Of a stretch of DNA of 48,857 bases, positions 2,833 to 17,550 are shown piece by piece; the stretch's first letter is position 1; every line of letters starts with the position of its first letter. This stretch comes from a virus, in UHGV virus genome UHGV-0138835; one strand, written 5' to 3'. The notes beneath the pieces are model-generated. The model saw only the letters and a list, made by a program, of their open reading frames with translations, had not been told where the DNA came from and searched no databases. The position numbers and the translations under genes are program-made.

Positions 2833-5800
2833 ATGATTTACACAACTGGAACAATTGCCATCAACGGCAATGCTGTTACAGGCACGGGAACAAACTTTTC
2901 CGCGCCGCTTTCTCTCATTCGTGTAGGCTGCACGCTCATTGCAATCGGCAATCCGGTGCAGATCTTTACCATCACAGAAATTAAAAGCGGTACTGAACTG
3001 TCAGTGACGCCAGCAGCTAACCCTGCAATCCCTGCGGGAACAAAATTTAGTATTCTGCTATCTGACTCAATCTCAGTTGATGGTCTTGCTCAGGACGTAG
3101 CTGAAACCCTGCGTTACTACCAGGGCAAGGAAACAGAGATCGCCGCCGCTGTCGAGTGGTGGGAAGATTTTGGCGGAGAAGGTCAGTTGGATCAGCTTCT
3201 TACCAACATTCGCGCAGAAACAGCCAAATCAACCGCCAATGCTCAAAAAACAGAAACTGACAAAAACGCAGCAGAAGCGTCAAAAACAGCGGCTGCAAAA
3301 TCCGCCACGGCAGCGAAAACATCAGAAACCAACGCTAAGGCAAGTGAGACAGCAGCAAAGACAAGCGAAACCAACGCCAAAACGTCAGAGAACAGGGCGC
3401 AAGAATATCTAAATCAAATGGGAAGGCTTACCAGTCCAATGGTTCAATGTGATTGGCCCGTTACAACTGGTACGACTGACGCTTACGTTAAGATAGCTAA
3501 AGTTACCAACCCAGGTAGCAGCTCCTGCCACATGACACTAATGATCACTAATGCCGGTAACTACGGGACAAGTTACGGAAACATTGATTTTGTCGAGATC
3601 TCCGCTCGCGGTTTTCCCGATGAACTGAACGCCGATAATGTATCTAAATACTTGAGTATCCGCCGCTTAGGTTCACCAAATCTGGCAACTGATAATCAGA
3701 TGCGTTATGGGCTTGTTAAGGGCGATAACTTTTTTGAGGTCTGGTGTCGTCAGCGAGCATTTACCGGAAGCGCAAAGGTCGCTGTACTGGCGCAGACTAA
3801 TCAAAACACGGAATTATACATTCCCGAAGGATTTGTTAAACAAGACAATGCACCATCAGGATTTATTGAAAGCCCGGCAGCAAGGATTTACGACCAGGTA
3901 AACAAACCCAGCAAGGCGGATTTGGGCCTTTCTAACGCTATGCTTATAGGCGCTTTTGGTCTTGGCGGTACTGGAATAGGGTTGACTGGTTACATGACTG
4001 ATCAGGAACTACTACAAGAGCTAAGGGCTAAAGGTGGGTGTTTCTGGAGATCAGGAAAACCAACAGGTAGCACGGCGACCATTTATAGCCACGGTTCTGG
4101 TATATTCTCGCGGTGCGCCGATACGTGGTCAGCGATCAATATCGACTACTCAACCGCGAAGGTTAAGGTCTATGCCGGTAACGACAATGGACTTAACAAT
4201 AACACTTTTGCCGTTAATGAGCTATACGGAACTAAAAACAAGCCGTCGAAATCAGATGTTGGACTTGGCAACGTAACGAACGATGCGCAGGTGAAAAAAA
4301 TCGGCGATGTTATGTCTGGTGACCTGGCGATCAAAAAAGGGACACCGTCATTCTTTCTGCGGTCAGACAGTGGAACCGCCCATGTATGGTTCCAAAATGC
4401 GGATCAGACGGAACGCGGCGTTATTTTTGCGCCTACAAATTCTGAGACGCTTGGTGAAGTTCACATCAGGGCTAAAAACGCAAAAGGTGAAACAAACGGT
4501 GATCTTATTGTTCGCCACGACGGGGTGGTTGAGGTTCAGAATCTCACAGCGGCTAAAAAAGCCAAAAGCGTAACCGCAGAATTTGCAAACACAAGCACTA
4601 GCTCCGATGATACCACGGTAAATATCAAAGGATCACAGCATACGCCTTTGGTTTTAACGCGCAACAACACAATTAAAAACTTATCCATTGGGTTTAAGGT
4701 TGATGATGTTGATCAAAAATACCTGGGTATAGCTGGCGACGGTGATTTGTATTTTGGTAGTTATTCTGACCACACAAAAAACAGCAAAGTGATCACACAA
4801 GCAATACTCGATAGCGGGGTAACGGTAGGCGGTAAAACAACCTTTTCTGACCTTGCCACATTCAGTGCTGGTATATATGGGGCCATAGAACCGGAAATAA
4901 TTAACAGCAAGACTGTAGATCTTAACAACCTTGTCATTAAGTCCTCTGATAAAGGTTCAGTTAAGTATTATCAATGCACATCTTCCGGGGCTGGTAACTC
5001 CATTACCAATAAGCCTGACGGCGTAGGCGGTAACTTTTTGCTACGTGTAGAATCTATTCGTAAGGTTACGGATTCAGATTATACAAACTTGCAAACCCTG
5101 GTTGGCACAGACACGAAACAAATATACGTTCGCTATTGTGAAAATGGCAATTGGTCCGCATGGAGTCAGGTTGTTGTTTCAGGAAGGAATCAGGATGTAA
5201 ACGTAAGGTCGTTAACCACTGGTACCCCTGTAAAATCTGGTGGCGGGCAAATTGATGTACTTGGGAGTACGTCAGATTATAGCGCGATGAATTGTACTGT
5301 GCGTGGTGTTGATAGCACTGGAACCAATTCGGCGTGGTCGGTAGGTACATCAGAAAGCACAGGAAAAATGTTGTACCTGAAAAACCACAGAAGCAGCGCT
5401 CAAGTGCTGTTAAATGGCGATGACGGCGCGGTGCAACTACTAAGCGGTACCGTCAACAGTGCTACAGCACAGGCGCTAACCATCAACAAAGATGAGGTTA
5501 ACTCAACTGCCGATTTAGTAATTAGAAAACAAACAGGGACTGGCAGTCGTTTTGCTTTACAGAACGCAGGTAATGCAGAACTACCGTTTTCTGTCAGTGT
5601 GTGGGGTTCCAGTACTCGACAAAACGTTTTTGAGGTTGCAACGTCTGCTGCGTATCTGTTTTATGCGCAAAGAACGCCAGCAGGCCAGTTGTTTGATGTA
5701 AATGGCGCTATTAATTGCACAACGCTGAATCAGTCATCAGACCGCGACCTTAAAGACGATATTCTCGTTATCAGCGACGCGACGAAAGCAATCCGTAAAA

Positions 5801-6150
5801 TGAACGGATACACCTACACGCTCAGGGAAAACGGGATGCCTTATGCTGGCGTTATTGCACAGGAAGTAATGGAGGCGATACCAGAAGCTGTGGGATCGTT
5901 TACTCATTACAGTGAAGAGTTGCAGGGACCAACGGTTGACGGCAACGAGCTACGCGAAGAAACGCGTTATCTCAATGTTGACTACGCCGCAGTAACTGGC
6001 TTACTTGTCCAGGTTGCACGCGAAACGGATAACCGCGTCACCGAACTGGAAGAGGAAAATGCCAGCTTACGCGCTAACATTGCTGTAATGGATGAGCGTA
6101 TCGCAAAACTTGAAGCGCTTGTCAGTAAGTTGACCGGAAGCGAAGAATAA
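2833..6150 (+). CDS. tail fiber protein with C-terminal intramolecular chaperone (peptidase S74-like) auto-processing domain
   Basis: 1105 aa; the C-terminal ~130 aa (DLKDDILVISDATKAIRKMNGYTYTL...YLNVDYAAVTGLLVQV...EEENASLRANIAVMDERIAKLEALV) matches the recalled endosialidase/T5 L-shaped-fiber chaperone domain; SD GGAG 8 nt upstream. Confidence 0.8.
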   Translation: MIYTTGTIAINGNAVTGTGTNFSAPLSLIRVGCTLIAIGNPVQIFTITEIKSGTELSVTPAANPAIPAGTKFSILLSDSISVDGLAQDVAETLRYYQGKETEIAAAVEWWEDFGGEGQLDQLLTNIRAETAKSTANAQKTETDKNAAEASKTAAAKSATAAKTSETNAKASETAAKTSETNAKTSENRAQEYLNQMGRLTSPMVQCDWPVTTGTTDAYVKIAKVTNPGSSSCHMTLMITNAGNYGTSYGNIDFVEISARGFPDELNADNVSKYLSIRRLGSPNLATDNQMRYGLVKGDNFFEVWCRQRAFTGSAKVAVLAQTNQNTELYIPEGFVKQDNAPSGFIESPAARIYDQVNKPSKADLGLSNAMLIGAFGLGGTGIGLTGYMTDQELLQELRAKGGCFWRSGKPTGSTATIYSHGSGIFSRCADTWSAINIDYSTAKVKVYAGNDNGLNNNTFAVNELYGTKNKPSKSDVGLGNVTNDAQVKKIGDVMSGDLAIKKGTPSFFLRSDSGTAHVWFQNADQTERGVIFAPTNSETLGEVHIRAKNAKGETNGDLIVRHDGVVEVQNLTAAKKAKSVTAEFANTSTSSDDTTVNIKGSQHTPLVLTRNNTIKNLSIGFKVDDVDQKYLGIAGDGDLYFGSYSDHTKNSKVITQAILDSGVTVGGKTTFSDLATFSAGIYGAIEPEIINSKTVDLNNLVIKSSDKGSVKYYQCTSSGAGNSITNKPDGVGGNFLLRVESIRKVTDSDYTNLQTLVGTDTKQIYVRYCENGNWSAWSQVVVSGRNQDVNVRSLTTGTPVKSGGGQIDVLGSTSDYSAMNCTVRGVDSTGTNSAWSVGTSESTGKMLYLKNHRSSAQVLLNGDDGAVQLLSGTVNSATAQALTINKDEVNSTADLVIRKQTGTGSRFALQNAGNAELPFSVSVWGSSTRQNVFEVATSAAYLFYAQRTPAGQLFDVNGAINCTTLNQSSDRDLKDDILVISDATKAIRKMNGYTYTLRENGMPYAGVIAQEVMEAIPEAVGSFTHYSEELQGPTVDGNELREETRYLNVDYAAVTGLLVQVARETDNRVTELEEENASLRANIAVMDERIAKLEALVSKLTGSEE

Positions 6151-6179
6151 TGGGTGATGTGCGAAGAACATCGCCGCGC

Positions 6180-6208
6180 GAAACGAGGCTAACGCCTCGT
6201 TTCTTTTT
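6180..6208 (+). terminator. rho-independent terminator after tail-fiber gene
   Basis: gaaacgaggc-taac-gcctcgtttc hairpin followed by TTTTT. Confidence 0.65.
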
Positions 6209-6229
6209 GTGTACCAAATAGTGACCAAA
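6208..6229 (+). repeat. 22-bp perfect direct repeat, copy 1 (tgtgtaccaaatagtgaccaaa); candidate integrase arm-type site / attP-region repeat
   Basis: Exact 22-mer recurs at 6439-6460, flanking a ~210-bp AT-rich tract just upstream of int. Confidence 0.5.
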
Positions 6230-6438
6230 ATGATAAATCAAAAACAAAAACATAACATAACACATTGAATACAAATGAATTTTTCATTAAGTTATCCATT
6301 CAAAAGATAAGTAGGTAGCGCCATTTCTATCATTTCATATCGTGTCACATCGTCACCGTTTCACGTTGATTTCAAAAGAAATATTTATTCTATCGTGTCA
6401 TATCGCTCCCCATCGTGTTACTATCCATGCGTAAAATG

Positions 6439-6460
6439 TGTGTACCAAATAGTGACCAAA
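6439..6460 (+). repeat. 22-bp perfect direct repeat, copy 2; ends 2 nt before the int start codon
   Basis: Identical to 6208-6229. Confidence 0.5.
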
Positions 6461-6462
6461 TT

Positions 6463-7662
6463 ATGCTTACAGATACCAAATTACGAAACATTCACGGCAA
6501 GCCATACGACGGCCCGGAAGAAGTACCGGACGCTGGCGGATTGTCTGCCAGGATAAGCCCGCGAGGAGTTATATCTTTCCAGTATCGCTACCGATTCAAC
6601 GGCAAGCCTCGACGGATGAAGATCGGCACATACGGAGAAATAACACTCAAAGAAGCGCGCGCGGAGGTGGCGGCGCACAAAGAAGTATTAAACTCAGGTC
6701 GAGATCCATCGGTAGCAAAAAGAATGCACCTTTCTCGCGTTACGACACGGGCAACGGTTGAGGATATTGTCAGGGAGTACATGGAATCAACGCAGGCAAG
6801 GAGCATGGTCAACTATAAGCAGGTTGAAGCGATGTTGAATAAGCACGTCATCAGGCCATACGGTAGCTATATAGTCGATGATATGGACGCTATGATGTGG
6901 GAGGGAGTTTTTAGAAAGGTAGCTAATGGTGGTGCGCCAGTTCAGGCGGGAATAGTTCTCAACAGAATGAAAGCGGTAATAAAATACGCCATGCGCCGCC
7001 GCCGCGTGGATCGTGACGACATATCGTTACTACGCGTGAAAGACGTTGGTAAAAACCCAGCGCAAGGGAAGCGGGTTTTGTCAATACAAGAGATTCGCCA
7101 TCTAATCAGCCTTATAGACAGTTCAAAAATGGCGCGTCTAAATCAGATATTGATGAAACTGATTATATTCACCGGATGCAGGACAAGCGAGCTAACAAAC
7201 GCAAGGCGAGAACATTTCGATCTTGATAACTGCGTGTGGACTGTGCCTGGTGCATTGAGTAAGAACAGAAACGAGTTTAAACGCGGTTTATCCGACGTTA
7301 GCGTCGATTTATTGCGTGAGGCTATGGATCTGCATAGCTTTGATTTTGTCTTCGTTCCTGTGCTTTCTGGAAGGGATGAGGCGGTGGACAGAAGCGTACC
7401 GAAAACAGCGGCAAGGGATTTAATGATGAGGATGGGCGGCGAGCCGTGGTCGTGTCACGATCTACGCCGCACCGTGAGGACAAACCTTTCAGCGCTTGGC
7501 GTTGCGCCTCACGTCGCTGAAAAGGTTTTGGGGCATAAGCTGGCGGGGATGTTGGCTATATACGATCAGTATGACTATGTGAGGGAACAAATAGAGGCGA
7601 TGAATAAACTGGCTGATTATTACATGAAGCCCATTGATTTACAAAATGAAATAACGTCCTGA
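6463..7662 (+). CDS. int: tyrosine recombinase / phage integrase (P4-type)
   Basis: N-terminal arm-binding-like region (ARISPRGVISFQYRYRFNGKPRRMKIGTYGEITLKEARAE) and C-terminal catalytic region with HDLRRT...LGH; start taken at ATG 6463 (the track ORF begins at 6415). Confidence 0.85.
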   Translation: MLTDTKLRNIHGKPYDGPEEVPDAGGLSARISPRGVISFQYRYRFNGKPRRMKIGTYGEITLKEARAEVAAHKEVLNSGRDPSVAKRMHLSRVTTRATVEDIVREYMESTQARSMVNYKQVEAMLNKHVIRPYGSYIVDDMDAMMWEGVFRKVANGGAPVQAGIVLNRMKAVIKYAMRRRRVDRDDISLLRVKDVGKNPAQGKRVLSIQEIRHLISLIDSSKMARLNQILMKLIIFTGCRTSELTNARREHFDLDNCVWTVPGALSKNRNEFKRGLSDVSVDLLREAMDLHSFDFVFVPVLSGRDEAVDRSVPKTAARDLMMRMGGEPWSCHDLRRTVRTNLSALGVAPHVAEKVLGHKLAGMLAIYDQYDYVREQIEAMNKLADYYMKPIDLQNEITS

Positions 7663-7838
7663 TAACGGTAAAGAGAGCCGCCGTGCTTTAATGCTGGCAT
7701 TCCCTTAACAGGTTCAGGGAATGGAGTACCTGAATCCTTCCATTTTTTAACCAGTTTAAAAAAGGCGGACTTACTAAGCCCGCCCAACATTTTTTGCACT
7801 TGCTCACGATTAATAAGAATTGCGCCGATCTTATCCAT
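7620..7838 (-). CDS. excisionase / AlpA-family small DNA-binding protein (putative Xis)
   Basis: 72 aa, HTH-like, convergent with and overlapping the int 3' end; family assignment from pattern only. Confidence 0.45.
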   Translation of the reverse strand: MDKIGAILINREQVQKMLGGLSKSAFFKLVKKWKDSGTPFPEPVKGMPALKHGGSLYRYQDVISFCKSMGFM

Positions 7839-8500
7839 TATCTTTTCCCCGTGTATTCAACGTGTCCGATACATCCATCAATAATAGCTTGCGCCATGTT
7901 GCGATAATCGCACGAAAATTCGTTGTCGCGGTTAAAGTTAATCTCTTTCGCCGCATCTTCACCGATAACCTTAGTAGCTAGTGCGAAAGCTATTTCAGCA
8001 AGCGCCTTTTCTTTCGGATCTACATGCAGCTTGAAAGCGCATGTTGTCCATGATAGCGGCCTCTCTAAGCATAAATCTTCCTTGCTTTCACATATAGCCC
8101 ATTTGTCACCAACATATTTAAATTTAACGACATCTAGAACCGTTCCGCTCGTAAGACCTACACAATCAAGCCACACGCCAACTGGAGGCTTTTCGCCTGC
8201 CAACCATTCCGTTTTTTCTTGTTGCGTTTCGCAATCATGCCGCTCATCTTCGATTAATTCATCAATGATTTCACTTTCTTTATTCATGCCGTCATCATCC
8301 TTATTCGATAAATTAGCGTATTTATCAAATTTCCAGCTTGCAGCCATAACCGAATAAGTGCCGCCAGTGTCAGCGCGAACACCCAATAAATAGTATGATC
8401 CAAAATTATATTCTGTGCGGCATGTTGTTACCTCAAACGATGGGTAACACTCAGGGTTAGTGCGATGGCTAATCACGCCAATTGCTTTAAGTTTATTCAT
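7838..8500 (-). CDS. hypothetical protein (220 aa), integrase-proximal accessory gene
   Basis: Long ORF, translationally coupled to downstream gene (TAATG overlap); no family recognised. Confidence 0.4.
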   Translation of the reverse strand: MNKLKAIGVISHRTNPECYPSFEVTTCRTEYNFGSYYLLGVRADTGGTYSVMAASWKFDKYANLSNKDDDGMNKESEIIDELIEDERHDCETQQEKTEWLAGEKPPVGVWLDCVGLTSGTVLDVVKFKYVGDKWAICESKEDLCLERPLSWTTCAFKLHVDPKEKALAEIAFALATKVIGEDAAKEINFNRDNEFSCDYRNMAQAIIDGCIGHVEYTGKR

Positions 8501-8514
8501 TTGCTTATCCTCGA

Positions 8515-8691
8515 TTACGCCACAGTTACATTGTCAACTTTGATAAAATATTCAGGATGATTTTCTATTTCGTTCTTGAAGTGCGCGTGACACAATCGCC
8601 ACTCCCGCGCCTGGTTGTGAAAATAGTAAACGTATTCGCCATCAATCTTGTATAAAATGCCTGTAGGTTTAGCCATGTAGTAACGAACCAT
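8515..8691 (-). CDS. hypothetical small protein
   Basis: Track ORF 8515-8745 trimmed to the internal ATG that overlaps the NinB stop by one base. Confidence 0.3.
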   Translation of the reverse strand: MVRYYMAKPTGILYKIDGEYVYYFHNQAREWRLCHAHFKNEIENHPEYFIKVDNVTVA

Positions 8692-9122
8692 TATTGCCCC
8701 CAGCGTTTTATAAATTCCTCGTTTAACTTCGTATCGCCAGACCACTGAACACCATGTTCAGCGCCGAACGAGTAGATCAGTTCGATTAATTCGCTAAATT
8801 CTGCTTTACCCATCCGGCTGGTTGACGTTCCCAGCACAACAAATCCTGATTTATCAAGATTAGGGACGACGCCATATTTTTTAAGCCCGGCAGTAAATAC
8901 CGCTTTCCAGTCTTCAGGTGACAGTTTTTTGCCGTACCAATTAACCTGATCGCTAATGTCGGTTAACAGCGCCCATAAAAGGCTATTTTGACTAAGCGAG
9001 CGGGTTTTCTCCTTGATGGTAATAATCAGCGGGCTTTTGCTATCAGGCTGGATTTCACTTATCTGCCTGATAGCGTTTTCTTTTACTGCGTCGTTTACTA
9101 TTTCAAATCTTATTTGCCTCAT
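8691..9122 (-). CDS. ninB: NinB recombination protein (lambda NinB/Orf family)
   Basis: Strong similarity to recalled lambda NinB (…RSLDQN..LWA.L.D.S.QV.W.G…VPNL…GFVV.G.STSRM…FSELIELI..FG…GV.WS). Confidence 0.85.
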   Translation of the reverse strand: MRQIRFEIVNDAVKENAIRQISEIQPDSKSPLIITIKEKTRSLSQNSLLWALLTDISDQVNWYGKKLSPEDWKAVFTAGLKKYGVVPNLDKSGFVVLGTSTSRMGKAEFSELIELIYSFGAEHGVQWSGDTKLNEEFIKRWGQ

Positions 9123-9837
9123 GGTTAGATAACGCCTCGTTTATTCTATTTGATGCAATTTCGAAATATTTTTCATCCTTTTCTATGCCGATAAAACGCC
9201 GATTAGTATTAATGCACGCAACGCCAGTAGTCCCGCTTCCCATGCAGTTATCAAGAACTAAATCACATTCGTTGGTATATGTTTTAATTAAATATTCCAT
9301 AAGCGCTACAGGCTTCTGTGTTGGGTGCAGCTTCACCCTATCTCGCGTAAACTCTAGTACCGTAACTGGATAGCGTTCGCCGCCACTCACCGTAGTTACA
9401 ATACCCGATGGATTGTAGTTAGATGTTTCCCCTCCTTTTTTACATTTATACGGCTTAAATCCCTCCCTCATTTGAGGGTTGTAAGTTGGCGGCTTATCAT
9501 AGAACACCAACACATTTTCATGATCCTTTAGCGGAGCGCGTTTAGCGTTCAGAAACCCTGTTCCAGCCTCTTTGCGCCAAATCCACTCATATCGAAGCAT
9601 ACCAAGATTGGACGCGCCTAAAACCTTGTCAAACGGCGTCTGGGCAGTCAGCACAATCGCCCCACAGCTTATGCGCTTGTATTCATCCCATAGAGACGGC
9701 AAATCAATAACGCTATCCCATTTGTTTCGCGTAGTCCCATACGGCAAATCACACAAAATCAAATTAATACTACAGTCTGGAATAGACTTCATAACCTCCA
9801 GGCAATCGCCTAACAATAATGCAATACCTTTACTCAT
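9103..9837 (-). CDS. DNA methyltransferase, beta-class N6-adenine/N4-cytosine (orphan)
   Basis: N-terminal motif IV DLPY (DPPY-like) and C-terminal motif I LDNCMGSGTTGVAC. Confidence 0.8.
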   Translation of the reverse strand: MSKGIALLLGDCLEVMKSIPDCSINLILCDLPYGTTRNKWDSVIDLPSLWDEYKRISCGAIVLTAQTPFDKVLGASNLGMLRYEWIWRKEAGTGFLNAKRAPLKDHENVLVFYDKPPTYNPQMREGFKPYKCKKGGETSNYNPSGIVTTVSGGERYPVTVLEFTRDRVKLHPTQKPVALMEYLIKTYTNECDLVLDNCMGSGTTGVACINTNRRFIGIEKDEKYFEIASNRINEALSNHEANKI

Positions 9838-9846
9838 GTTATAGCC

Positions 9847-10044
9847 TCATAATACACCGTTACTATTTTTCCACTGTGCCCGCGCATACATAATCGCCTG
9901 CAAAGAAATTAGCCGCGAGCTTGTCATGAAAGCGCCTTTTAAATATTTCATATCAACCGTGACAGGCTTATCAGGATCGTCGCCGCGCATGTATTCCGCA
10001 ATCGTGCTCAAATCCTCAACGGTTAAATCTAATTCCTTGTTCAT
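9847..10044 (-). CDS. hypothetical protein (65 aa)
   Basis: ORF in operon context. Confidence 0.3.
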   Translation of the reverse strand: MNKELDLTVEDLSTIAEYMRGDDPDKPVTVDMKYLKGAFMTSSRLISLQAIMYARAQWKNSNGVL

Positions 10045-10054
10045 GACTTACCCC

Positions 10055-10261
10055 TTACACAATCCGCATTGTGTTTCGTAATTCCCCGCGCAGCGCCTGC
10101 AAAGCGTAACGAATCGGCACAAAAGCCCGGTTAAATTTTACGTGCCTGTATTTGCGCATTAGTGGAGGCGTATAAACCATCGCGCCGCAAGAATTGCATG
10201 GAAATTTAAAGTGAGATTCATCAATGAATGTTTCAACTGAATAAAAAATTACACGTCTCAT
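10055..10261 (-). CDS. hypothetical protein (68 aa), Cys-containing
   Basis: ORF in operon context. Confidence 0.3.
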   Translation of the reverse strand: MRRVIFYSVETFIDESHFKFPCNSCGAMVYTPPLMRKYRHVKFNRAFVPIRYALQALRGELRNTMRIV

Positions 10262-10818
10262 AATTCCAACCCCGTTTCGCCGTTAAGTTTTTCGATCTCA
10301 AACACTGGTTTATCAGGAAGCAGGCCGTTATTTTTACGGTATTCGTTTAATAAGTTACTAAAATTAAATGCGACAACATTTGAATAACCATAAAAACGCG
10401 CGTTTCTGAAAAAATATTTACCGTCAAACTTATTAACGGTTAATAGATTCTCACTTCCTAACATCCGTAATATTCTGCCGACCTTTCCTTTGTTTATATT
10501 AATATTCAATTCATTCTTAACATCTTCCGCTGAAAAATACCCGCTGCTATTTGAAAACAAAGGGATTATATCCCTTATCGCCATTTCTCTTACTGACTTC
10601 AAGCAATATGATAATCTTTTACTATTTAGATCTACTTTTATAATAACGCCATCAGAAACCAAAGCATCCAAAGCGCAAATTATTTCACCTTCAGGTCCAG
10701 GAATAGATTTAACTATCGTTCCCTCACCTGAAATAACAGCGTCATTTAAAAAATCAATTATTTGTTGTTGGTATGAAGTTTTCATTTTCAGCCTCGCTTT
10801 AAACGCGATAACAGCCAC
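10258..10818 (-). CDS. hypothetical protein (186 aa) in a visibly AT-rich segment; possible acquired accessory gene
   Basis: Sequence is markedly AT-rich by eye compared with the flanking helicase and methyltransferase genes; no family recognised. Confidence 0.4.
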   Translation of the reverse strand: MAVIAFKARLKMKTSYQQQIIDFLNDAVISGEGTIVKSIPGPEGEIICALDALVSDGVIIKVDLNSKRLSYCLKSVREMAIRDIIPLFSNSSGYFSAEDVKNELNININKGKVGRILRMLGSENLLTVNKFDGKYFFRNARFYGYSNVVAFNFSNLLNEYRKNNGLLPDKPVFEIEKLNGETGLEL

Positions 10819-10861
10819 CAGAAAGCGGTAAACTTTCCGGTAAGCCGTTTGCTCATATTGA

Positions 10862-12277
10862 TTAAAAAGATGCGTTATTCTGATTGTTTCGTTGGCTAAA
10901 TCGGCTTGTACGATGATTCATGGACTGAATGCACGCGGCGGCGGCCTTACCCTGGTCGCATGGTAATATATTGCCGTTGTCATCAAACCGCTGGTAAATA
11001 GTACCAGTTTTCCCGTGACGGTTTTTAGATACAATTATTTCCATGTATTCGCGTGCTACAGACTGCTCATCGTAATAACCATCGCGGTAAACCATGATGA
11101 TCCTGTCAGCGTCTTGCTCAAGGTTCCCTGAATCTCGAAGATCTGAATTATTAGGGCGCTTGTTAGGTCGTTCCTCAACGCGGCGGGATAACTGGGCCAG
11201 CGCCAACACTGGTACACGCAATTCTTTCGCCATCATCTTCAACGACCATGACAATTGCCCTACAGCGAGATCGTGACGTTCGGCCTTAGCCAGCTTCATC
11301 AACCCGATGTAGTCAATCATTACCATACCCAGGTTGGGGTGTTCCTGTTTCATCCGTTCCGTGGTGGCGCGTATTTCCTCAACCGTTAACTGCGACGCGT
11401 CAACGATCCACACATCAAGATTAGCAAGTGCACTCATACCCTGGCCAACATGCGCCCACCCCTCATCATCAAGTTTTACCGGATTGCGCAGGCAGTCAGT
11501 TGATAAATTGCCAGCGCCAGCTATAGCGCGCTCAGTCATCTGATCGAGCGACATTTCAAGCGTGAATAACAAAACACCAACCCGCTGATCCTTGCTGCCA
11601 GGGTAAGGGCGCTCAGCAGCAGCGCGGGCAATCGCCAGCGCCAACGCAGATTTACCAGACCCAGGGCGTCCGGCGAGAAGTACCAAATCAGTGGCGTTAA
11701 TACCGCCTAACATTTCGTCGAGCGGTTCTATCCCTGTTTTGATGTTGTCAGAATTGACACCGCATTCCATGCGCTTGCTTAAAACCTCTGTGTATTCCTG
11801 TACCGCATCGCGCAACAGAACAGGGATAATCTTGTCTTTCGTTACCTTTAATTTTGAATACCGGGAATCAAAATCTTTCATCGTCTCTTTGACGACCTCA
11901 AGCGTACCCGTTTCCAGTTTGTAGCGCATATCGTCGATGAGTTCCAACATCTGACGCCGCTGGTGCTCTTCCCGTAGTAGCTGTGCGTACCCCTTCAGGT
12001 TGGCAGCAGAAGGACACGATCGCGCCGTTTGCATTAGCGGTACAAAGTTTTCGTTGCCAATCTCATCGCCAACCAATAACGCATCGATAAGATTCCTGTT
12101 TCTGGCTTGCGCCCTGATAATTTCAAACGCACGTTTATACAGCGGAATCGTGAACACTTCAGGATCAAGAGTGGCGAGAACATCTTGCGCGTTAGGAGTT
12201 AGGCCGCCTAACAGCAGCCCGCCGATAACTGACGCTTCACGTTCCTGCCGTAGTGAGTTTATTTGCTCAGTTACCAT
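10862..12277 (-). CDS. replicative DNA helicase, DnaB family
   Basis: N-terminal DnaB-like ERAVLGGLLL-type motif (EASVIGGLLLGG), Walker A GRPGSGKSA, length 471 aa. Confidence 0.85.
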   Translation of the reverse strand: MVTEQINSLRQEREASVIGGLLLGGLTPNAQDVLATLDPEVFTIPLYKRAFEIIRAQARNRNLIDALLVGDEIGNENFVPLMQTARSCPSAANLKGYAQLLREEHQRRQMLELIDDMRYKLETGTLEVVKETMKDFDSRYSKLKVTKDKIIPVLLRDAVQEYTEVLSKRMECGVNSDNIKTGIEPLDEMLGGINATDLVLLAGRPGSGKSALALAIARAAAERPYPGSKDQRVGVLLFTLEMSLDQMTERAIAGAGNLSTDCLRNPVKLDDEGWAHVGQGMSALANLDVWIVDASQLTVEEIRATTERMKQEHPNLGMVMIDYIGLMKLAKAERHDLAVGQLSWSLKMMAKELRVPVLALAQLSRRVEERPNKRPNNSDLRDSGNLEQDADRIIMVYRDGYYDEQSVAREYMEIIVSKNRHGKTGTIYQRFDDNGNILPCDQGKAAAACIQSMNHRTSRFSQRNNQNNASF

Positions 12278-12295
12278 TATGTTATTTCCTCCGGT

Positions 12296-13438
12296 TTACA
12301 AAATGGAATATTCAGGGTAATAAACAAAGCGCCCTATCTCACCATGATCCGGGCTGTAAATAATAACCGCCGCCAGGCGACGCGACCGCCATCCGCCATT
12401 AGTAGAATAAGCATCCTTACCGGCTAACGTGCCGTGATACTCAACAACGCCCAACGATGATTCAATCATCCGTTGATGATGCCAGTGCCCGCAGTGGGCG
12501 TAAACCGCCGCAGACTTCCCGAAATCATCGCGCCAGTCAGACACGCAAGCAGCCAATAAATTTTCCGGTTTTTTGATAGTGTGCCCGTGGTGGTAAGCAA
12601 GGAATGTTTTTCCGTACTGTGTGTGGTGGACGATGGCAGGGGACACATCAACCGTCACGCGCGGTTCATCTTCGTAAAAAGCCGCCAGCGACGCACGTAG
12701 CCATATCATTCCTGACTGGTCGTGATTGCCGGATAACACCTGTATTTCAACATCCTTATGATTTAATAACATCTTCCCTACCGCCCGCCGGACCGACCGG
12801 ATCGCTACATAAACAAGTTTTGCGTAGCGTGAATCGCAATCAAGTACGTGATTGCTTGATGGCGTAACTGGCAACAGACCGTCTGTGTGAAGAATATCCC
12901 CACCGAGAAGCAATACAGCTTTTTCAGACATCGGCGCAGCGCCTACAGCGTAGTCAAAGAAGTCATTCAACACGCGCTCAGCAATCCCAGTGTCGTAGCT
13001 CTCGCCGCATTCAGCTTTATGAGCAAGCGCCCCGATATGCAGATCAAATACCGGATAAAGGGCAAGGCTTTTTTGAAAATCAATTTCAGGCACTGGCACG
13101 GCCTCCGCGCGTGGTATTTCTTCCGTGAATGCGTCGCGGGCAGCTTCCATTACCTTTTCCATTTCATCGCGGTCACGGGCTGTTTTAATCCAGCGCATGA
13201 CTGTCTTCCCGTCTTTATCGACAAGAACAGATTCACCAGTAACGCCAAAACCCGGTGCGCGGCGCGTTGATAACAAACCGCGTTTCGCCAGCTTTGCGCC
13301 CAGACGCTCGACGTTGCGTTTTGACATGCAATATTTTTCAGCGATCTGTTTATACGTAAGACCGTTGTTATATTCAGCGATCAATTGCTCATCGCTGATT
13401 TTTCTTTGCGACATAATGTTAATTCCTCCAGTTAACAA
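12296..13438 (-). CDS. HTH domain fused to calcineurin-like metallophosphoesterase
   Basis: N-terminal HTH (LTYKQIAEKYCMSKRNVERL); phosphoesterase motifs DLH, GGDILHTDG, SGNHDQ, HHGH, GHWHH; start may be the internal ATG at 13414. Confidence 0.6.
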   Translation of the reverse strand: MLTGGINIMSQRKISDEQLIAEYNNGLTYKQIAEKYCMSKRNVERLGAKLAKRGLLSTRRAPGFGVTGESVLVDKDGKTVMRWIKTARDRDEMEKVMEAARDAFTEEIPRAEAVPVPEIDFQKSLALYPVFDLHIGALAHKAECGESYDTGIAERVLNDFFDYAVGAAPMSEKAVLLLGGDILHTDGLLPVTPSSNHVLDCDSRYAKLVYVAIRSVRRAVGKMLLNHKDVEIQVLSGNHDQSGMIWLRASLAAFYEDEPRVTVDVSPAIVHHTQYGKTFLAYHHGHTIKKPENLLAACVSDWRDDFGKSAAVYAHCGHWHHQRMIESSLGVVEYHGTLAGKDAYSTNGGWRSRRLAAVIIYSPDHGEIGRFVYYPEYSIL

Positions 13439-13447
13439 AATGTATAC

Positions 13448-14191
13448 CTACTTACACGCAAAAAGTTCAGATACCCAAAGCTGCCCCTTAGCGGTAAATA
13501 GTGATTGGACGTAACCTTCAGCCGAACATTTTACCACTCCATAGCCTTTTTCTACGAACCACTGTTTGAACATACGCCCACCGCGCTTAATTCGCGTATC
13601 GTACACGTCAACCTGTTCAAGTTTTTTGTTGAGTTGCGTAGCAGTCATACCCAAAGGCTTAGCGACCTGTGTAGCGTTGCGATGCTGTTCGTTTTTTGCA
13701 ATAGCATTATAAACAGCCGCTTTCGGTGCTAATTCCTTATTTTCCAGCGCCAGACGATCAACTTCTTTCTGTGCTAATAGTTTTTGCTCTACCTCATCCG
13801 CCCATGCGCGAGCAGCCGCAACCGGATCAGTGAAGTCCGGCAAAGCTGGTTTAAAACCGTAATGTCCATTTTCACGCAAAGCAGGGAGAACTTCTTCACA
13901 CACCCAATCCTGGAAGCGCTCAGCAAATTCTATTTTTGATCGCATCACAAGGCGGTACATATCTGATTCATGAATTAGCGTTACGCCTTGCGGTTTAGGG
14001 TCAAAACCCAAACACTGCATTTCACCGTATTTGATTTTAATCAATGACTTACAATGTTGTTTTAGAGCGTCCGCAGGTCTGATATACCCCAAAGCCCGCG
14101 CCACATCCATTGCAACAAAAGCAGGTTTACCATCATAAATTACAGCAGTGATTTTATTGTCATCAAAATTAAAACACATCAACTCAGACAT
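13448..14191 (-). CDS. antirepressor, Bro-N / KilA-C domain protein
   Basis: N-terminal Bro-N signature (FNFDDNKITAVIYDGKPAFVAMDVARALGY); start taken at ATG 14191 with GGGGAA SD. Confidence 0.7.
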   Translation of the reverse strand: MSELMCFNFDDNKITAVIYDGKPAFVAMDVARALGYIRPADALKQHCKSLIKIKYGEMQCLGFDPKPQGVTLIHESDMYRLVMRSKIEFAERFQDWVCEEVLPALRENGHYGFKPALPDFTDPVAAARAWADEVEQKLLAQKEVDRLALENKELAPKAAVYNAIAKNEQHRNATQVAKPLGMTATQLNKKLEQVDVYDTRIKRGGRMFKQWFVEKGYGVVKCSAEGYVQSLFTAKGQLWVSELFACK

Positions 14192-14323
14192 TGTAATTTC
14201 CCCGCAAAACGCTCTACAACGCAAAAATCCCACCGCGTAACACGTTCGCACATGTTGCAGTGTATTATTGCGCCAGAGGCGCTATCAGGTGGCTAATTTT
14301 TGATTTACAGACCGGTAGGTAGG

Positions 14324-14425
14324 TTATGGATTGACTAGAAGGAACAAACCGCCGAATAAGGCGACGTTAACAGCGATTGCCGCAGCGATGGCAAAAGCCA
14401 TGGCGAAAACGTGTTTACCGTCCAT
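14324..14425 (-). CDS. possible micro-ORF (33 aa), hydrophobic single-helix peptide MDGKHVFAMAFAIAAAIAVNVALFGGLFLLVNP
   Basis: Read by hand in the gap between the antirepressor and replication genes; weak SD. Confidence 0.25.
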   Translation of the reverse strand: MDGKHVFAMAFAIAAAIAVNVALFGGLFLLVNP

Positions 14426-14558
14426 TTTAAAATTCTCTCTGTAACGCTCTATAACGAGCTAATCGCAAAAAGGTAAGCAAGTATAGCACCACATGCGATT
14501 TATCTCGCTGGCGAGCTTGTTTTGCTGGTTATTTTGGGTTTTTGTGGATCGTGGTTAG

Positions 14559-15611
14559 TCAAAGAGCGCCAGCGCGTGTATCGCGTAGCGTTTTTGGTTT
14601 AAGCAGGAAATCAAGTGTCGCAGTGAAGCCATCGCCGAAGTAAAAATCTGAAGCCTTGTTTTTGAATGCTTCGAAGTAGGCGATAAAGCCGTTAATGCTT
14701 TTGTCTTTCAGGTAGTCAGTGAACGCATAGATCTTGCGTTCAAGATCCCGATCAAGTTCAGCAGGTGGCAACAGGCCGTCAAACGTGATGTTAAACTCTT
14801 CCACCACATCGGCAGCGTTTACAGTAGCTGATAGCTTGCGCCATTGTTCAGCGTCAGCCAGATACCCATCGAATTTAGTTACCCGGCAAATGTTAACAGG
14901 CTTAGGTGTTCCGCCACGGCTACGCCATTGCGTTAAAGCCCACTCAATCACTAATGTGATCTCATCCTCCGTATATGCTTTACGTGTTTTTGTTTCTGTC
15001 AGTAGTTCGATGAACGGTTTAGCATCACGACATTTACATCCTGCCTTGTCGTTGTAGAATGCCAGGCAACGCAATGCCGCTTCGTTTACGCCATCCTGAT
15101 TGAACATTTTTTGTTCATTTTCGACAATACACGAAGTGTATATATCTTTTTCTCTTTCTTTTTCTATTTCTAATTCTAATTCATGACCCTTTCCTGACCC
15201 GGTCATGACCCTATCATGACCTTTTTGTGTTGGATTGATTAACTTTTCTAATTTTAATTGCTCCTTCGCTGTGTTTATGGCGGCCCTGTAAGCGCTTTTA
15301 GAAGTCATTGATTGGTCCAGCCTTTTCAATAACTTTAAACAAGTTATGTGGCCTTGAGAACATTCAAACAAACCAATTTCGATGAAGTATTTCATCATTT
15401 CTTCTATACGTTTTTCAGTAGATCCGACGTTTCGCGCAATTATTCTTGCGTCATGTCGTAGGTCAAAAGTTAGATTGTGCTGATCTACGTCATAAGTTAT
15501 TAGTTCTAGGCAATACCAATAAAGCCCGTATCCTTCCAGTCCATAATCTAATAAAACGTTTTGAAGTTTTTCATCGCGGTTCGCATCGCTATCATGCTTA
15601 AACCACTTCAT
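14559..15611 (-). CDS. replication initiation protein (replisome-organizer-like N-terminal domain), contains internal iterons
   Basis: N-terminus MKWFKHDSDANRDEKL…GLEGYGLYWYCLE typical of phage replisome organizers; iterons in the linker region. Confidence 0.6.
   Translation of the reverse strand: MKWFKHDSDANRDEKLQNVLLDYGLEGYGLYWYCLELITYDVDQHNLTFDLRHDARIIARNVGSTEKRIEEMMKYFIEIGLFECSQGHITCLKLLKRLDQSMTSKSAYRAAINTAKEQLKLEKLINPTQKGHDRVMTGSGKGHELELEIEKEREKDIYTSCIVENEQKMFNQDGVNEAALRCLAFYNDKAGCKCRDAKPFIELLTETKTRKAYTEDEITLVIEWALTQWRSRGGTPKPVNICRVTKFDGYLADAEQWRKLSATVNAADVVEEFNITFDGLLPPAELDRDLERKIYAFTDYLKDKSINGFIAYFEAFKNKASDFYFGDGFTATLDFLLKPKTLRDTRAGAL
15138..15221. repeat. putative origin of replication: AT-rich tract plus four 9-bp iterons (TCATGACCC / TCCTGACCC) at exact 11-bp spacing
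   Basis: Iterons at 15181, 15192, 15203, 15214, immediately after the tract tatatatctttttctctttctttttctatttctaattctaat; located inside the initiator gene as in lambda O. Confidence 0.5.
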
Positions 15612-15614
15612 AGA

Positions 15615-15869
15615 TCATTCCTCCGGCAATGCAATGTCATAAATGTCGCCGTATTCGTCAGCGCGTTTAATGAATCCTTTGCGGATCAATGAATTTAATG
15701 CGTCAACAGTAGTATGCAGTGGTAGTTCGCACACTTTTGCGATCTCTTCGCGTGAAGCATGTGCGCGGCCTTTGTTGTCTGCCTTTTCTGCAAACGCAAT
15801 TAAGACAAGTTTTTGGATCGGGCTGTTAAGTTTTACGTTCCATACTTCATTCATCATGTGCATACTCAT
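15615..15869 (-). CDS. winged-helix HTH protein, first gene of the leftward early operon (Cro position)
   Basis: 84 aa, divergent from the repressor gene; HTH-like segment SREEIAKVCELPLHTTVDALNSLIRKGFI. Confidence 0.5.
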   Translation of the reverse strand: MSMHMMNEVWNVKLNSPIQKLVLIAFAEKADNKGRAHASREEIAKVCELPLHTTVDALNSLIRKGFIKRADEYGDIYDIALPEE

Positions 15870-16174
15870 CTTGTTTTTCTCCTATGGTTAGAGTGAACGC
15901 GCGGGCGGGCATCCCATTAGCATTAGATAGCAGTGACTGACCGCTCAACAGATCCCGCCGTTGCGTGATATTTGTTTTTCGCTTCGCAGCGACACCGGAT
16001 TTTTAAAGAGCTTAAGGAATTGGCCTTTTGTGCTTTCCTTTATCTTTTTTCTTGCATCATTGCAACTATGGCCTTACCTTGTCTGCAAGTTTACATAATG
16101 GCTTTAACAGGTCAAGGCTTGAAAAACACGTTTTGTGACTTGCATCAAACTTTTTTAGGTTATAGGGTAGCGAC
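15870..16174. promoter_or_regulatory. divergent immunity regulatory region (OR-like) with repeated CTTGCATCA motifs and a candidate leftward boxA/boxB
   Basis: CTTGCATCA at 16051 and 16139; TTTACATAATGG at 16090; minus-strand boxA-like GCTCTTTAAAAA (plus 16000-16011) followed by a hairpin at plus 15979-15992. Confidence 0.45.
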
Positions 16175-16822
16175 ATGAAAACAAAATGGTATGACTTAGC
16201 AAAGCAGCTCATGCGGGCGCAGGGCATGAGTCAGGATTCATTGGCTGATCTCATGGGGATAACCAAAGGTGGCCTTTCGCACTGGCTGAACGGTCGCCGT
16301 GAGCCAAATCTTGAAGATATTGCGCGGATCATGCGGGCGCTTGGGCGTCGGCAGTTTACTGTCACACATGACGGGATGGTTATCGATGATTCTGTTTCTA
16401 ACACGTTACCGGGAGCGCCACCGCGTGATTTAGGCAGTTACCCGGTTGTTGACTGGAAGGATGTAGCAAACAATATGGAAGGCACATGCCGATCAACATT
16501 GCCACACATTACTACTAGCGTTATTTGTTCGGATGATAGTTATTGGCTGGTTGCTAAAGGTGAATCAATGAACGCACCGCAGGGGTTAAGCATCCCGGCG
16601 GGGACTATGATACTCGTTGACCCGCACGCGCCAGCTATTGACGGAAAACTTGTTATAGCACAACTGGAGGAAGGGCAGATACCTACGTTTAAACAGTTGA
16701 TTATTGATGGAGGCCGAAAACTTTTGCGTTCACTGAATCCGTTGTATCCGCCGATCCCTATGAATCCAGAGTCAAAAATCATTGGCGTGGTTGTTGATGC
16801 GAAGATCGTAAACCTGCCATAA
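16175..16822 (+). CDS. CI-type repressor (HTH_XRE + LexA-like S24 peptidase domain), P22 C2-like
   Basis: C-terminal domain closely matches recalled P22 C2 (GSYP…SEDS.WL…G.SM.AP.GLSIP.G..ILVDP……GKLV.A.LE…..TFK.L..D.GRK.L..LNP.YP.I…….KIIGVVVDAK..NLP). Confidence 0.9.
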   Translation: MKTKWYDLAKQLMRAQGMSQDSLADLMGITKGGLSHWLNGRREPNLEDIARIMRALGRRQFTVTHDGMVIDDSVSNTLPGAPPRDLGSYPVVDWKDVANNMEGTCRSTLPHITTSVICSDDSYWLVAKGESMNAPQGLSIPAGTMILVDPHAPAIDGKLVIAQLEEGQIPTFKQLIIDGGRKLLRSLNPLYPPIPMNPESKIIGVVVDAKIVNLP

Positions 16823-16827
16823 ACATT

Positions 16828-16853
16828 AGCCGCCTGGTGGCGGCTTTTCTTTG
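16828..16853 (+). terminator. rho-independent terminator after repressor gene
   Basis: agccgcc-tggt-ggcggct hairpin followed by TTTCTTTGTT. Confidence 0.6.
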
Positions 16854-16946
16854 TTCGAAAAAACACCAAAACGTAAACAGAAAACGCTATTTATTGTTTA
16901 AATATCAATAGTATATAAAATATTTTAAAAAAGTATACAAAATGGA

Positions 16947-16975
16947 TTGACTCGATGTTATACGGGGAGTATATT
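16947..16975 (+). promoter_or_regulatory. candidate sigma70 early promoter (pL-like): -35 TTGACT, 17-bp spacer, -10 TATATT
   Basis: Hexamers and spacer read directly; upstream of the nut site and the N-like gene. Confidence 0.5.
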
Positions 16976-17016
16976 GCGAGTCAAAGGAGGCAGCAAGGCA
17001 GGGAAGGAAGGTTACT

Positions 17017-17054
17017 TGCTCTTTAATAATCTGGTCAGCCGCTGGAAGTGCGGC
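17017..17054 (+). promoter_or_regulatory. candidate nut site: boxA-like TGCTCTTTAA plus boxB hairpin GCCGC-UGGAAGU-GCGGC
   Basis: boxA 17017-17026 resembles the recalled rrn/lambda boxA; 11-nt spacer; boxB stem-loop 17038-17054. Confidence 0.5.
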
Positions 17055-17110
17055 AATTAACGAAGATGATTTTTTATTAAGTTTCATCAAGGATATACGG
17101 AGATCAGATT

Positions 17111-17401
17111 ATGAGCGTTACAATTATGTATGGAAAATGTGATAGCAAAATGAACGCCAGGGAACGCAGAAGGATAAAAAGAGAAAACGAAAGAAAATCA
17201 TCACCTGCAATTAATAAAACAGACAATGTGGATAAAGCTATTCGATTTGCAAACGAGGAAAGGTGCAAACCAAATAGCATTAAAGAACGTCGCAAAGGAT
17301 CAGTAAAATGGTATACGGAAAATGAAAGCGGCAGCTACTACCACGCAACGCAACCACGCCATTTAGGGGAGAAACCCCTGGATAAAGTCCGTTACCATTA
17401 A
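17111..17401 (+). CDS. N-like transcription antitermination protein (P22 gene 24-like)
   Basis: N-terminus MSVTIMYGKCDSKMNARERRRIKRENERK resembles recalled P22 gp24 (MTVITYGKS…AKTRRHERRRKLA) with an arginine-rich motif; first gene after promoter and nut. Confidence 0.6.
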   Translation: MSVTIMYGKCDSKMNARERRRIKRENERKSSPAINKTDNVDKAIRFANEERCKPNSIKERRKGSVKWYTENESGSYYHATQPRHLGEKPLDKVRYH

Positions 17402-17550
17402 TACAAAATGTAAACATTCGGAGGTTACATTATGGTTATCGAGGCGCTTCAATTCAAACTGACAGTAGCGGAAATGCTTCATGATGCCGAAATGTGGAGC
17501 GCCGCGAATAAAGCCTTATACATAGTGTTAACAGCGAAGGAGATTAAAGA

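Follow-up and report, generated by a model that had tools for sequence, protein, structure and literature searches.

Two lineage-restricted genes of an mEp021-like coliphage genome as candidate delayed-early accessory binding proteins

The 48,857-nt viral genome UHGV-0138835, hereafter referred to as the window, carries two small minus-strand genes, p58 (58 aa, 8515-8691) and p220 (220 aa, 7838-8500), between ninB and p72, a gene for an Xis-like protein that meets the integrase gene. Both are near-universal in mEpimmI-type phages, the group of temperate coliphages to which the window belongs, and both are embedded in the leftward replication/recombination operon, at its promoter-distal end. 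Judged from sequence, p58 and p220 are true lineage-restricted orphans. The reading that we favour, and hold tentatively, is that they encode lineage-specific, delayed-early accessory binding proteins of the mEpimmI phages, similar in kind to the products of the exo-xis region of phage lambda.

The window belongs, by sequence similarity, to the mEp021-like (mEpimmI) temperate coliphages. The region shares 92% nt identity with mEp044 and mEp010, both Escherichia phages; further relatives are mEp021, mEp013, mEp515, mEp554 and MagusPhagus. The paper on the mEpimmI group (PMC11893012) characterises its members as temperate siphoviruses of gut E. coli that are non-lambdoid and Nus-dependent, and in human gut E. 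coli these phages have been reported to be as common as lambdoid phages (PMC11893012). The stretch from ninB to p72 was found as prophage in about 35 of 5,426 complete E. coli genomes, while some 15 other matching genomes held a short p72-like piece only.

Both open reading frames (ORFs) that the first-pass annotation had placed between the excisionase-like gene and ninB, for proteins of 220 and about 58 aa, were confirmed on the minus strand. The p220 frame opens with an ATG at 8500, with a GAGGA Shine-Dalgarno motif 8 nt upstream, and its stop codon ends at 7838, where the TAA and the ATG of p72 have one base in common (TAATG). On the other side, p58 opens with an ATG at 8691, which shares one base with the TAA of ninB (again TAATG), and ends at 8515. 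The translational coupling proposed for the two genes is therefore literal at both outer junctions; at the inner junction the frames do not overlap and are separated by a 14-nt spacer that holds the Shine-Dalgarno motif, so that coupling there is plausible only. Position 8745, up to which the first-pass annotation had extended the pair, marks the GTG from which an ORF of the greatest possible length (76 aa) would start, and that ORF would overlap ninB by 55 nt. The 58-aa version of p58 is the one called by PGAP and PHANOTATE in relatives, where the same frame is conserved.

Conservation of the two genes was assessed in 50 related loci, drawn with overlap from 7 phages, 11 E. coli chromosomes and 38 IMG/VR contigs. 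The order ninB-p58-p220-p72 was kept in all 50, with p58 frameshifted in one (MagusPhagus), and the p58 frame kept its length of exactly 58 codons even where identity fell to 53%. Pooled Nei-Gojobori ratios of non-synonymous to synonymous substitution rates (dN/dS) were 0.17 for p58, 0.26 for p220 and 0.04 for ninB. Because the order is kept in every locus, the 58-codon frame is maintained and dN/dS is low, both genes are real, coding for proteins under purifying selection that is looser than that acting on ninB. Their orthologues, in the same position, are mEp021_03 and mEp044_03 for p220 (68-89% identical) and mEp044_04 for p58 (90-97% identical), all deposited as hypothetical; the p58 counterpart in the mEp021 record is without annotation. 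The pair was thus already on deposit as hypotheticals of a published phage group, and at present it is an ordinary phage ORFan pair.

The frameshifted p58 of MagusPhagus (L003 3994-4168) reads through 46 codons, after which its final 13 codons continue in a different frame. Since MagusPhagus was isolated, and is presumably viable, despite its broken p58, this suggests that p58 is dispensable for plaque formation. A further ORF (7923-8357, plus strand, 144 aa, Ser/Leu-rich) lies antisense and wholly within p220, as a mirror of its acidic codons; it is most likely not a gene, the selection pattern favouring the minus-strand frame.

As the first-pass annotation had stated, neither protein could be placed in a recognised family, p58 and p220 giving no match in Pfam, PHROGs, NCBIfam or PADLOC. 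Pfam and PHROGs scans of all 31 aligned p220 homologues, taken one by one, returned noise only: the best Pfam match was to DUF5348 (expect value, E, 0.07-0.1), under the family cut-off, and a RexA-like PHROG match of one p220-family member (E 0.16) was rejected. At E<=1, PADLOC-DB offered no family for p220, p58, p72 or the three upstream ORFs, and no PDB sequence was matched by p220 (searched by profile) or by p58 and p72 (searched by single sequence). An exhaustive hidden Markov model search of 1.84 billion cluster representatives with p220 gave nine matches, all of them p220-family members or fragments, and no relative was found in the GTDB species-representative genomes. When p220 and p58 were compared by tblastn (E<=1) with 50,697 phage records, just seven mEpimmI-type phages were recovered, and lambda was not matched.

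Homologues of p220 in the word index numbered 376. Among the 120 listed (65-100% identity), the named sources were nearly all E. coli entries reading 'hypothetical protein', the remaining ones being one Shigella metagenome-assembled genome (MAG) and one Caudoviricetes MAG; the p220 family was found only in E. coli/Shigella and in gut metagenome contigs. For p58, seven clusters were found. A 78-aa, chimeric-looking fragment (P0128) from a 699-nt contig with 1.2x coverage was set aside. Homology to recombination-directionality or nin-region proteins, which would have pointed to a routine role, was found for neither p58 nor p220, and it is the upstream gene alone that matches NinB (8691-9122, minus strand; Pfam NinB, 5.5e-46; phrog_72), a recombination mediator of the Orf family. 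We are left with two near-universal genes of common gut coliphages that have no family and no relatives elsewhere.

The AlphaFold2 (AF2) model of p220 has a predicted local distance difference test score (pLDDT) of 76 and falls into four parts. The first is an N-terminal beta-barrel (aa 1-62; 8315-8500, minus strand), mildly basic with an isoelectric point (pI) of 8.6, for which strands are predicted at residues 8-12, 22-32, 35-42, 48-52 and 56-60 (pLDDT 72-87). It is followed by an acidic linker (aa 63-100; 8201-8314, minus strand) with a net charge of -10 and the core DDDGMNKESEIIDELIEDERHDC, predicted to be disordered (pLDDT <50 at aa 65-94). The middle beta-barrel (aa 101-158; 8027-8200, minus strand) starts with a PPxGVWL motif and has predicted strands at 110-114, 121-130, 134-139, 146-150 and 155-158 (pLDDT 85-88). 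The C-terminal three-helix domain (aa 159-220; 7841-8026, minus strand) is conserved, at 82% mean identity, with helices predicted at 162-179, 181-184 and 197-207. Overall, p220 is acidic (net charge -12, pI 4.9). The product of p58 (pI 6.9) is predicted to form a single small beta-barrel of four strands, a short helix and a fifth strand.

In the predicted models, p58 and both barrels of p220 adopt a generic small SH3/Tudor/Sm-like beta-barrel fold: each is five-stranded, strongly bent and antiparallel, spans about 50-60 residues and matches solved members. The likeness to known small beta-barrels, such as B. subtilis YfhH (1sf9), the KOW domains of Spt5 and the C-terminal Tudor domain of UvrD/PcrA, is at the level of the fold, with 4-20% identity; it confers no Pfam membership on p58 or p220, and no ligand can be inferred from it. 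Multi-barrel phage proteins in BFVD (such as A0A2I7R755, A0A5Q2W0D9 and A0A2I7RWL6), whose length of 188-200 aa is near that of p220, were matched by Foldseek at E 8e-6 to 8e-5 with a probability of 1.0, the alignments covering about 200 columns; their TM-scores against p220 were just 0.23-0.32, with 12-17% identity, and none is named or functionally characterised. Comparison by hhalign of the N barrel with the middle barrel, and of p58 with either, gave no signal of internal duplication. No enzymatic, transmembrane, effector, nuclease or NTPase signature was seen in p58 or p220.

The four parts of p220 have diverged to different degrees. At a 75% identity cut, the allelic types number three for the N barrel, one for the linker, at least eight for the middle barrel and four for the C domain, and these types reassort freely. 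What varies in this family is the allele, not the presence or absence of p58 and p220. The linker is the best-conserved segment (dN/dS 0.13, many invariant columns), and the middle barrel has a mean pairwise identity of 48%, saturated synonymous divergence (dS 1.43) and a dN/dS of about 0.3. Since dS is saturated and dN/dS is close to 0.3 in close and distant pairs alike, the diversity of the barrels reflects old alleles exchanged by recombination, and no recent positive selection that could be detected. With shuffled barrels on either side of a linker that is invariant, acidic and predicted to be disordered, the family amounts to a natural domain-swap series, which could reveal a binding partner quickly.

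The divergence of p58 was weakly correlated with that of the middle barrel of p220 (Mantel r=0.24, p=0.001), but with that of the N barrel, the segment physically next to p58, there was no correlation (r=0.02), the reverse of the expectation from simple linkage. A natural variant of p220 (P0125, 127 aa) has the N barrel joined straight to the C domain, without linker and middle barrel. A p220 of this type is carried by a divergent mEpimmI relative (L054 3264-4384, on a 53-kb contig of Logan SRR32406413; also L055), in which a 246-aa, weakly Bro-N-like gene stands in place of p58. This relative, found in a separate look-up, represents the sole lineage found to lack p58, and in its p220 the linker and middle barrel are missing as well. 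There is thus a hint, at the level of sequence, of a link between p58 and the middle barrel, and the conserved disordered linker together with the co-loss of p58 and the linker/middle-barrel half is mildly curious. No co-variation was detected between p58 or the segments of p220 on the one hand and ninB, the upstream genes for 65-, 68- and 186-aa proteins, or integrase/p72 on the other.

The genes gp14 to gp02 of mEp021, all on the minus strand, make up a replication/recombination cluster that diverges from the repressor gene, and the gene order of the window matches that of mEp021. A nutL site lies at the divergence in mEp021, and Gp17 is an N-like antiterminator of the early operons (PMC11893012). 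In the window, a candidate leftward promoter (16115-16088, minus strand) adjoins the repressor homologue, about 8 kb from p58 and p220. A consensus scan of 10785-7644 (minus strand) found no sigma-70-like promoter site, nor was a terminator-like site found by consensus scan between ninB, p58 and p220. The GC content of p58 and p220 (40-42%) shows no compositional break from that of ninB (43%), the methyltransferase gene (43%) or p72 (41%).

On the reading that we favour, the leftward operon would be transcribed in the order Cro-like helix-turn-helix (HTH) protein, replication protein, DnaB, the methyltransferase where present, NinB, p58, p220 and the Xis-like p72, and antitermination by Gp17 would let transcription reach the operon end, so that p58 and p220 are made. 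Expression would then be expected during lytic growth or at the lysis-lysogeny decision, and not in a quiescent lysogen. Since SH3/Tudor/Sm-like barrels bind peptides, proteins or single-stranded nucleic acid, and given the barrel fold and the missing catalytic or membrane signature, both proteins would act by binding and not by catalysis. In such a scheme p220 may serve as a modular adaptor, whose helical C domain and invariant acidic linker would give a constant function while the exchangeable barrels, chiefly the middle one, would set specificity for a polymorphic partner. The product of p58 would be a separately encoded barrel, possibly partnering the linker/middle-barrel half of p220. The pair would fill the niche of the lambda exo-xis (ea) genes, that is, of non-essential modulators binding host or phage factors early in infection.

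The comparison with lambda can be made on several counts. The exo-xis genes (Ea22, Ea8.5 and Orf60a/61/63) likewise immediately precede xis, where an early operon under N-type antitermination has its distal end, and their products, like those of p58 and p220, are small and non-enzymatic. Ea22 is a multi-domain protein, highly diverse in sequence between phages, whose proposed binding partner is an unknown host protein (PMC10834534, PMC7093339). In contrast, however, Ea22 consists of a coiled coil and a mixed alpha-beta dimer domain, whereas p220 is predicted to combine a pair of beta-barrels with an acidic linker and a helical domain, and the lambda pL operon is a recombination operon whereas that of p58 and p220 is a replication operon. 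No homology to Ea22 was found by hhalign of the p220-family profile (probability 0.4%), and tblastn (E<=1) gave no match in lambda, whether to Ea22, Ea8.5, Orf60a, Orf61 or Orf63. The likeness to exo-xis is one of position.

Several points weigh against the accessory-binding-protein reading. The net charge of p220 (-12) argues against direct nucleic-acid binding by the whole protein, and the near-universality of the pair fits an integral role in the life cycle equally well as that of an accessory modulator. No positive selection was detected on the variable barrels in close or distant pairs, and therefore an arms-race partner is not demonstrated. The association between p58 and the middle barrel is weak, middle type 6 occurring with all four p58 types, and the joint loss of p58 and middle barrel was seen in a single lineage. 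Finally, neither gene is mentioned in the mEpimmI paper (PMC11893012) or its supplements. Placement in a lytic early operon redirects the choice of assays, away from defence screens and towards lysis-lysogeny, host interaction and recombination in mEp021.

It could be envisaged, though we regard it as rather unlikely, that the pair serves counter-defence or host takeover, p220, with or without p58, neutralising a polymorphic host defence or host factor in lytic growth. The invariant linker, whose net charge would suit such a role, might act by acidic mimicry or by sequestration, and the swappable barrels would follow the variants of the target. What is seen fits this explanation in so far as the products of this early operon are small and non-enzymatic, have no relatives outside one lineage and show high allelic diversity. 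Anti-defence genes, however, are usually patchy among relatives, whereas p58 and p220 are near-universal; the distance from the putative promoter would make them late among the early genes; the dN/dS of about 0.3 bears no sign of recent diversifying selection; and there is no Pfam or PADLOC match.

We attach a similarly low likelihood to p58 and p220 being accessory factors of phage recombination or replication, as partners of NinB/Orf, single-stranded DNA-binding protein or Xis/Int, held at a fixed ratio by translational coupling. The TAATG overlaps with ninB upstream and the Xis-like gene downstream are in line with this, as is membership of the replication/recombination cluster (PMC11893012), and single-stranded nucleic acid, or the surface of a polymerase or helicase, is often what Sm/Tudor/KOW-like barrels bind. 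Overlapping stop and start codons are, however, commonplace in phage operons, and neither p58 nor any segment of p220 co-varies with ninB, with the upstream genes for 65-, 68- and 186-aa proteins or with the integrase/p72 module. In addition, ninB is nearly invariant and p220 mosaic, p220 is acidic overall, and one lineage has a Bro-N-like gene instead of p58. The present data do not separate the counter-defence and recombination-cofactor readings from that of accessory binding proteins.

A more far-reaching proposal, which we consider improbable, is that p58 and p220 together form an undescribed two-protein small-beta-barrel module, a programmable early adaptor whose shuffled barrels read polymorphic targets of the host or of rival phages. 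The disordered acidic peptide and the helical domain would then be the effector or anchor, p58 would partner the linker/middle-barrel half, and the purpose would be counter-defence or competition between phages.

Least likely of all is that the two genes are prophage-expressed defence, superinfection-exclusion or lysogenic-conversion cargo in an integrase-adjacent slot, a reading that goes back to the first pass and that none of the tests applied supported: although they lie less than 1 kb from the integrase at the prophage end, have no known function and show strong allelic diversity in p220, they have no promoter or terminator of their own and form no compositional island, run opposite to the integrase and continuous with the lytic early operon, are present in all close relatives and are not variable, lack any PADLOC match and any sign of an effector, nuclease, NTPase or transmembrane segment, and p220 travels independently of the integrase module (identity to the window over 38 loci, integrase versus p220, r=-0.14), while PMC11893012 already ascribes the exclusion functions of the group to its repressor and Lpp lipoproteins.

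In contrast to p220, p72 (72 aa, 7620-7838, minus strand) has an identity to the window that follows that of the integrase over the same 38 loci (r=0.99). It is basic (pI 9.9) and Xis/AlpA-like, matching phrog_4745, 'DNA binding protein', at 3.9e-4, and a single pairwise comparison gave a local match to the recognition helix and wing of lambda Xis (E 0.003). Because it is basic, matches Xis locally and tracks the integrase in identity, p72 behaves as the partner of the integrase. The profile of a recombination-directionality factor, a small basic winged-helix/HTH protein with an allele tracking the integrase, is thus one that p72 fits; p58 and p220 were rejected as excisionase candidates, being acidic to neutral beta-barrel proteins, with p220 uncorrelated with the integrase. 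A terminator-like hairpin lies inside the p72 ORF (7763-7785, minus strand), consisting of GGGCGGGCTTAGTAAGTCCGCCT followed by TTTTT, with 10 pairs, of which 6 are G-C; expression of Xis could thereby be confined to transcripts under antitermination. The 3' ends of the integrase gene (plus strand) and p72 (minus strand) overlap by 43 nt at 7620-7662, a convergent overlap that is annotated in relatives too.

A p72-like gene with 81% nt identity was also found at the eut locus beside eutA, within the remnant of a prophage (L051 4973-5209, L052 4970-5206), with yffS beside it in L052. The remnant occurs in at least 12 of the E. coli genomes listed, without an adjoining p220 or p58. It is apparently of the CPZ-55 type found in K-12.

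On the integrase side of the window, a tail-fibre gene (2833-6150, plus strand) is followed by a terminator, an intergenic gap, presumably attP, and the tyrosine integrase gene (6415-7662, plus strand; Pfam Arm-DNA-bind_3, Phage_int_M and Phage_integrase), which the long run of minus-strand genes meets head-on at its end. The integrase is about 93-98% identical to those of the abgT-inserting relatives mEp044, UMNK88 and 09-00049, whose integrase is of type II in the scheme of PMC11893012, and the prophage insertion site of the relatives adjoins an abgT remnant. Upstream in the leftward run lie the genes for DnaB (10862-12277, minus strand), for a 186-aa winged-helix protein with weak MarR/Lrp-like matches (10258-10818, minus strand) and for an N6/N4 DNA methyltransferase (9103-9837, minus strand), the last situated between the 65-aa ORF and ninB; the small 68-aa and 65-aa ORFs (minus strand) are located between the 186-aa gene and the methyltransferase. 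An Rfam scan of 6000-17500 found no RNA family.

The methyltransferase gene is present in the window and mEp021 and missing from mEp044, 2017C-4173W12, M15 and UMNK88, and in strain MS 21-1 its place is taken by a BRO-N gene. The variable slot of this neighbourhood is that of the methyltransferase, not that of p58 and p220. With a GC content of 34%, against 46% for the window, the 186-aa gene is by composition the most foreign-looking gene of the operon, and its alleles among relatives go down to 35% identity.

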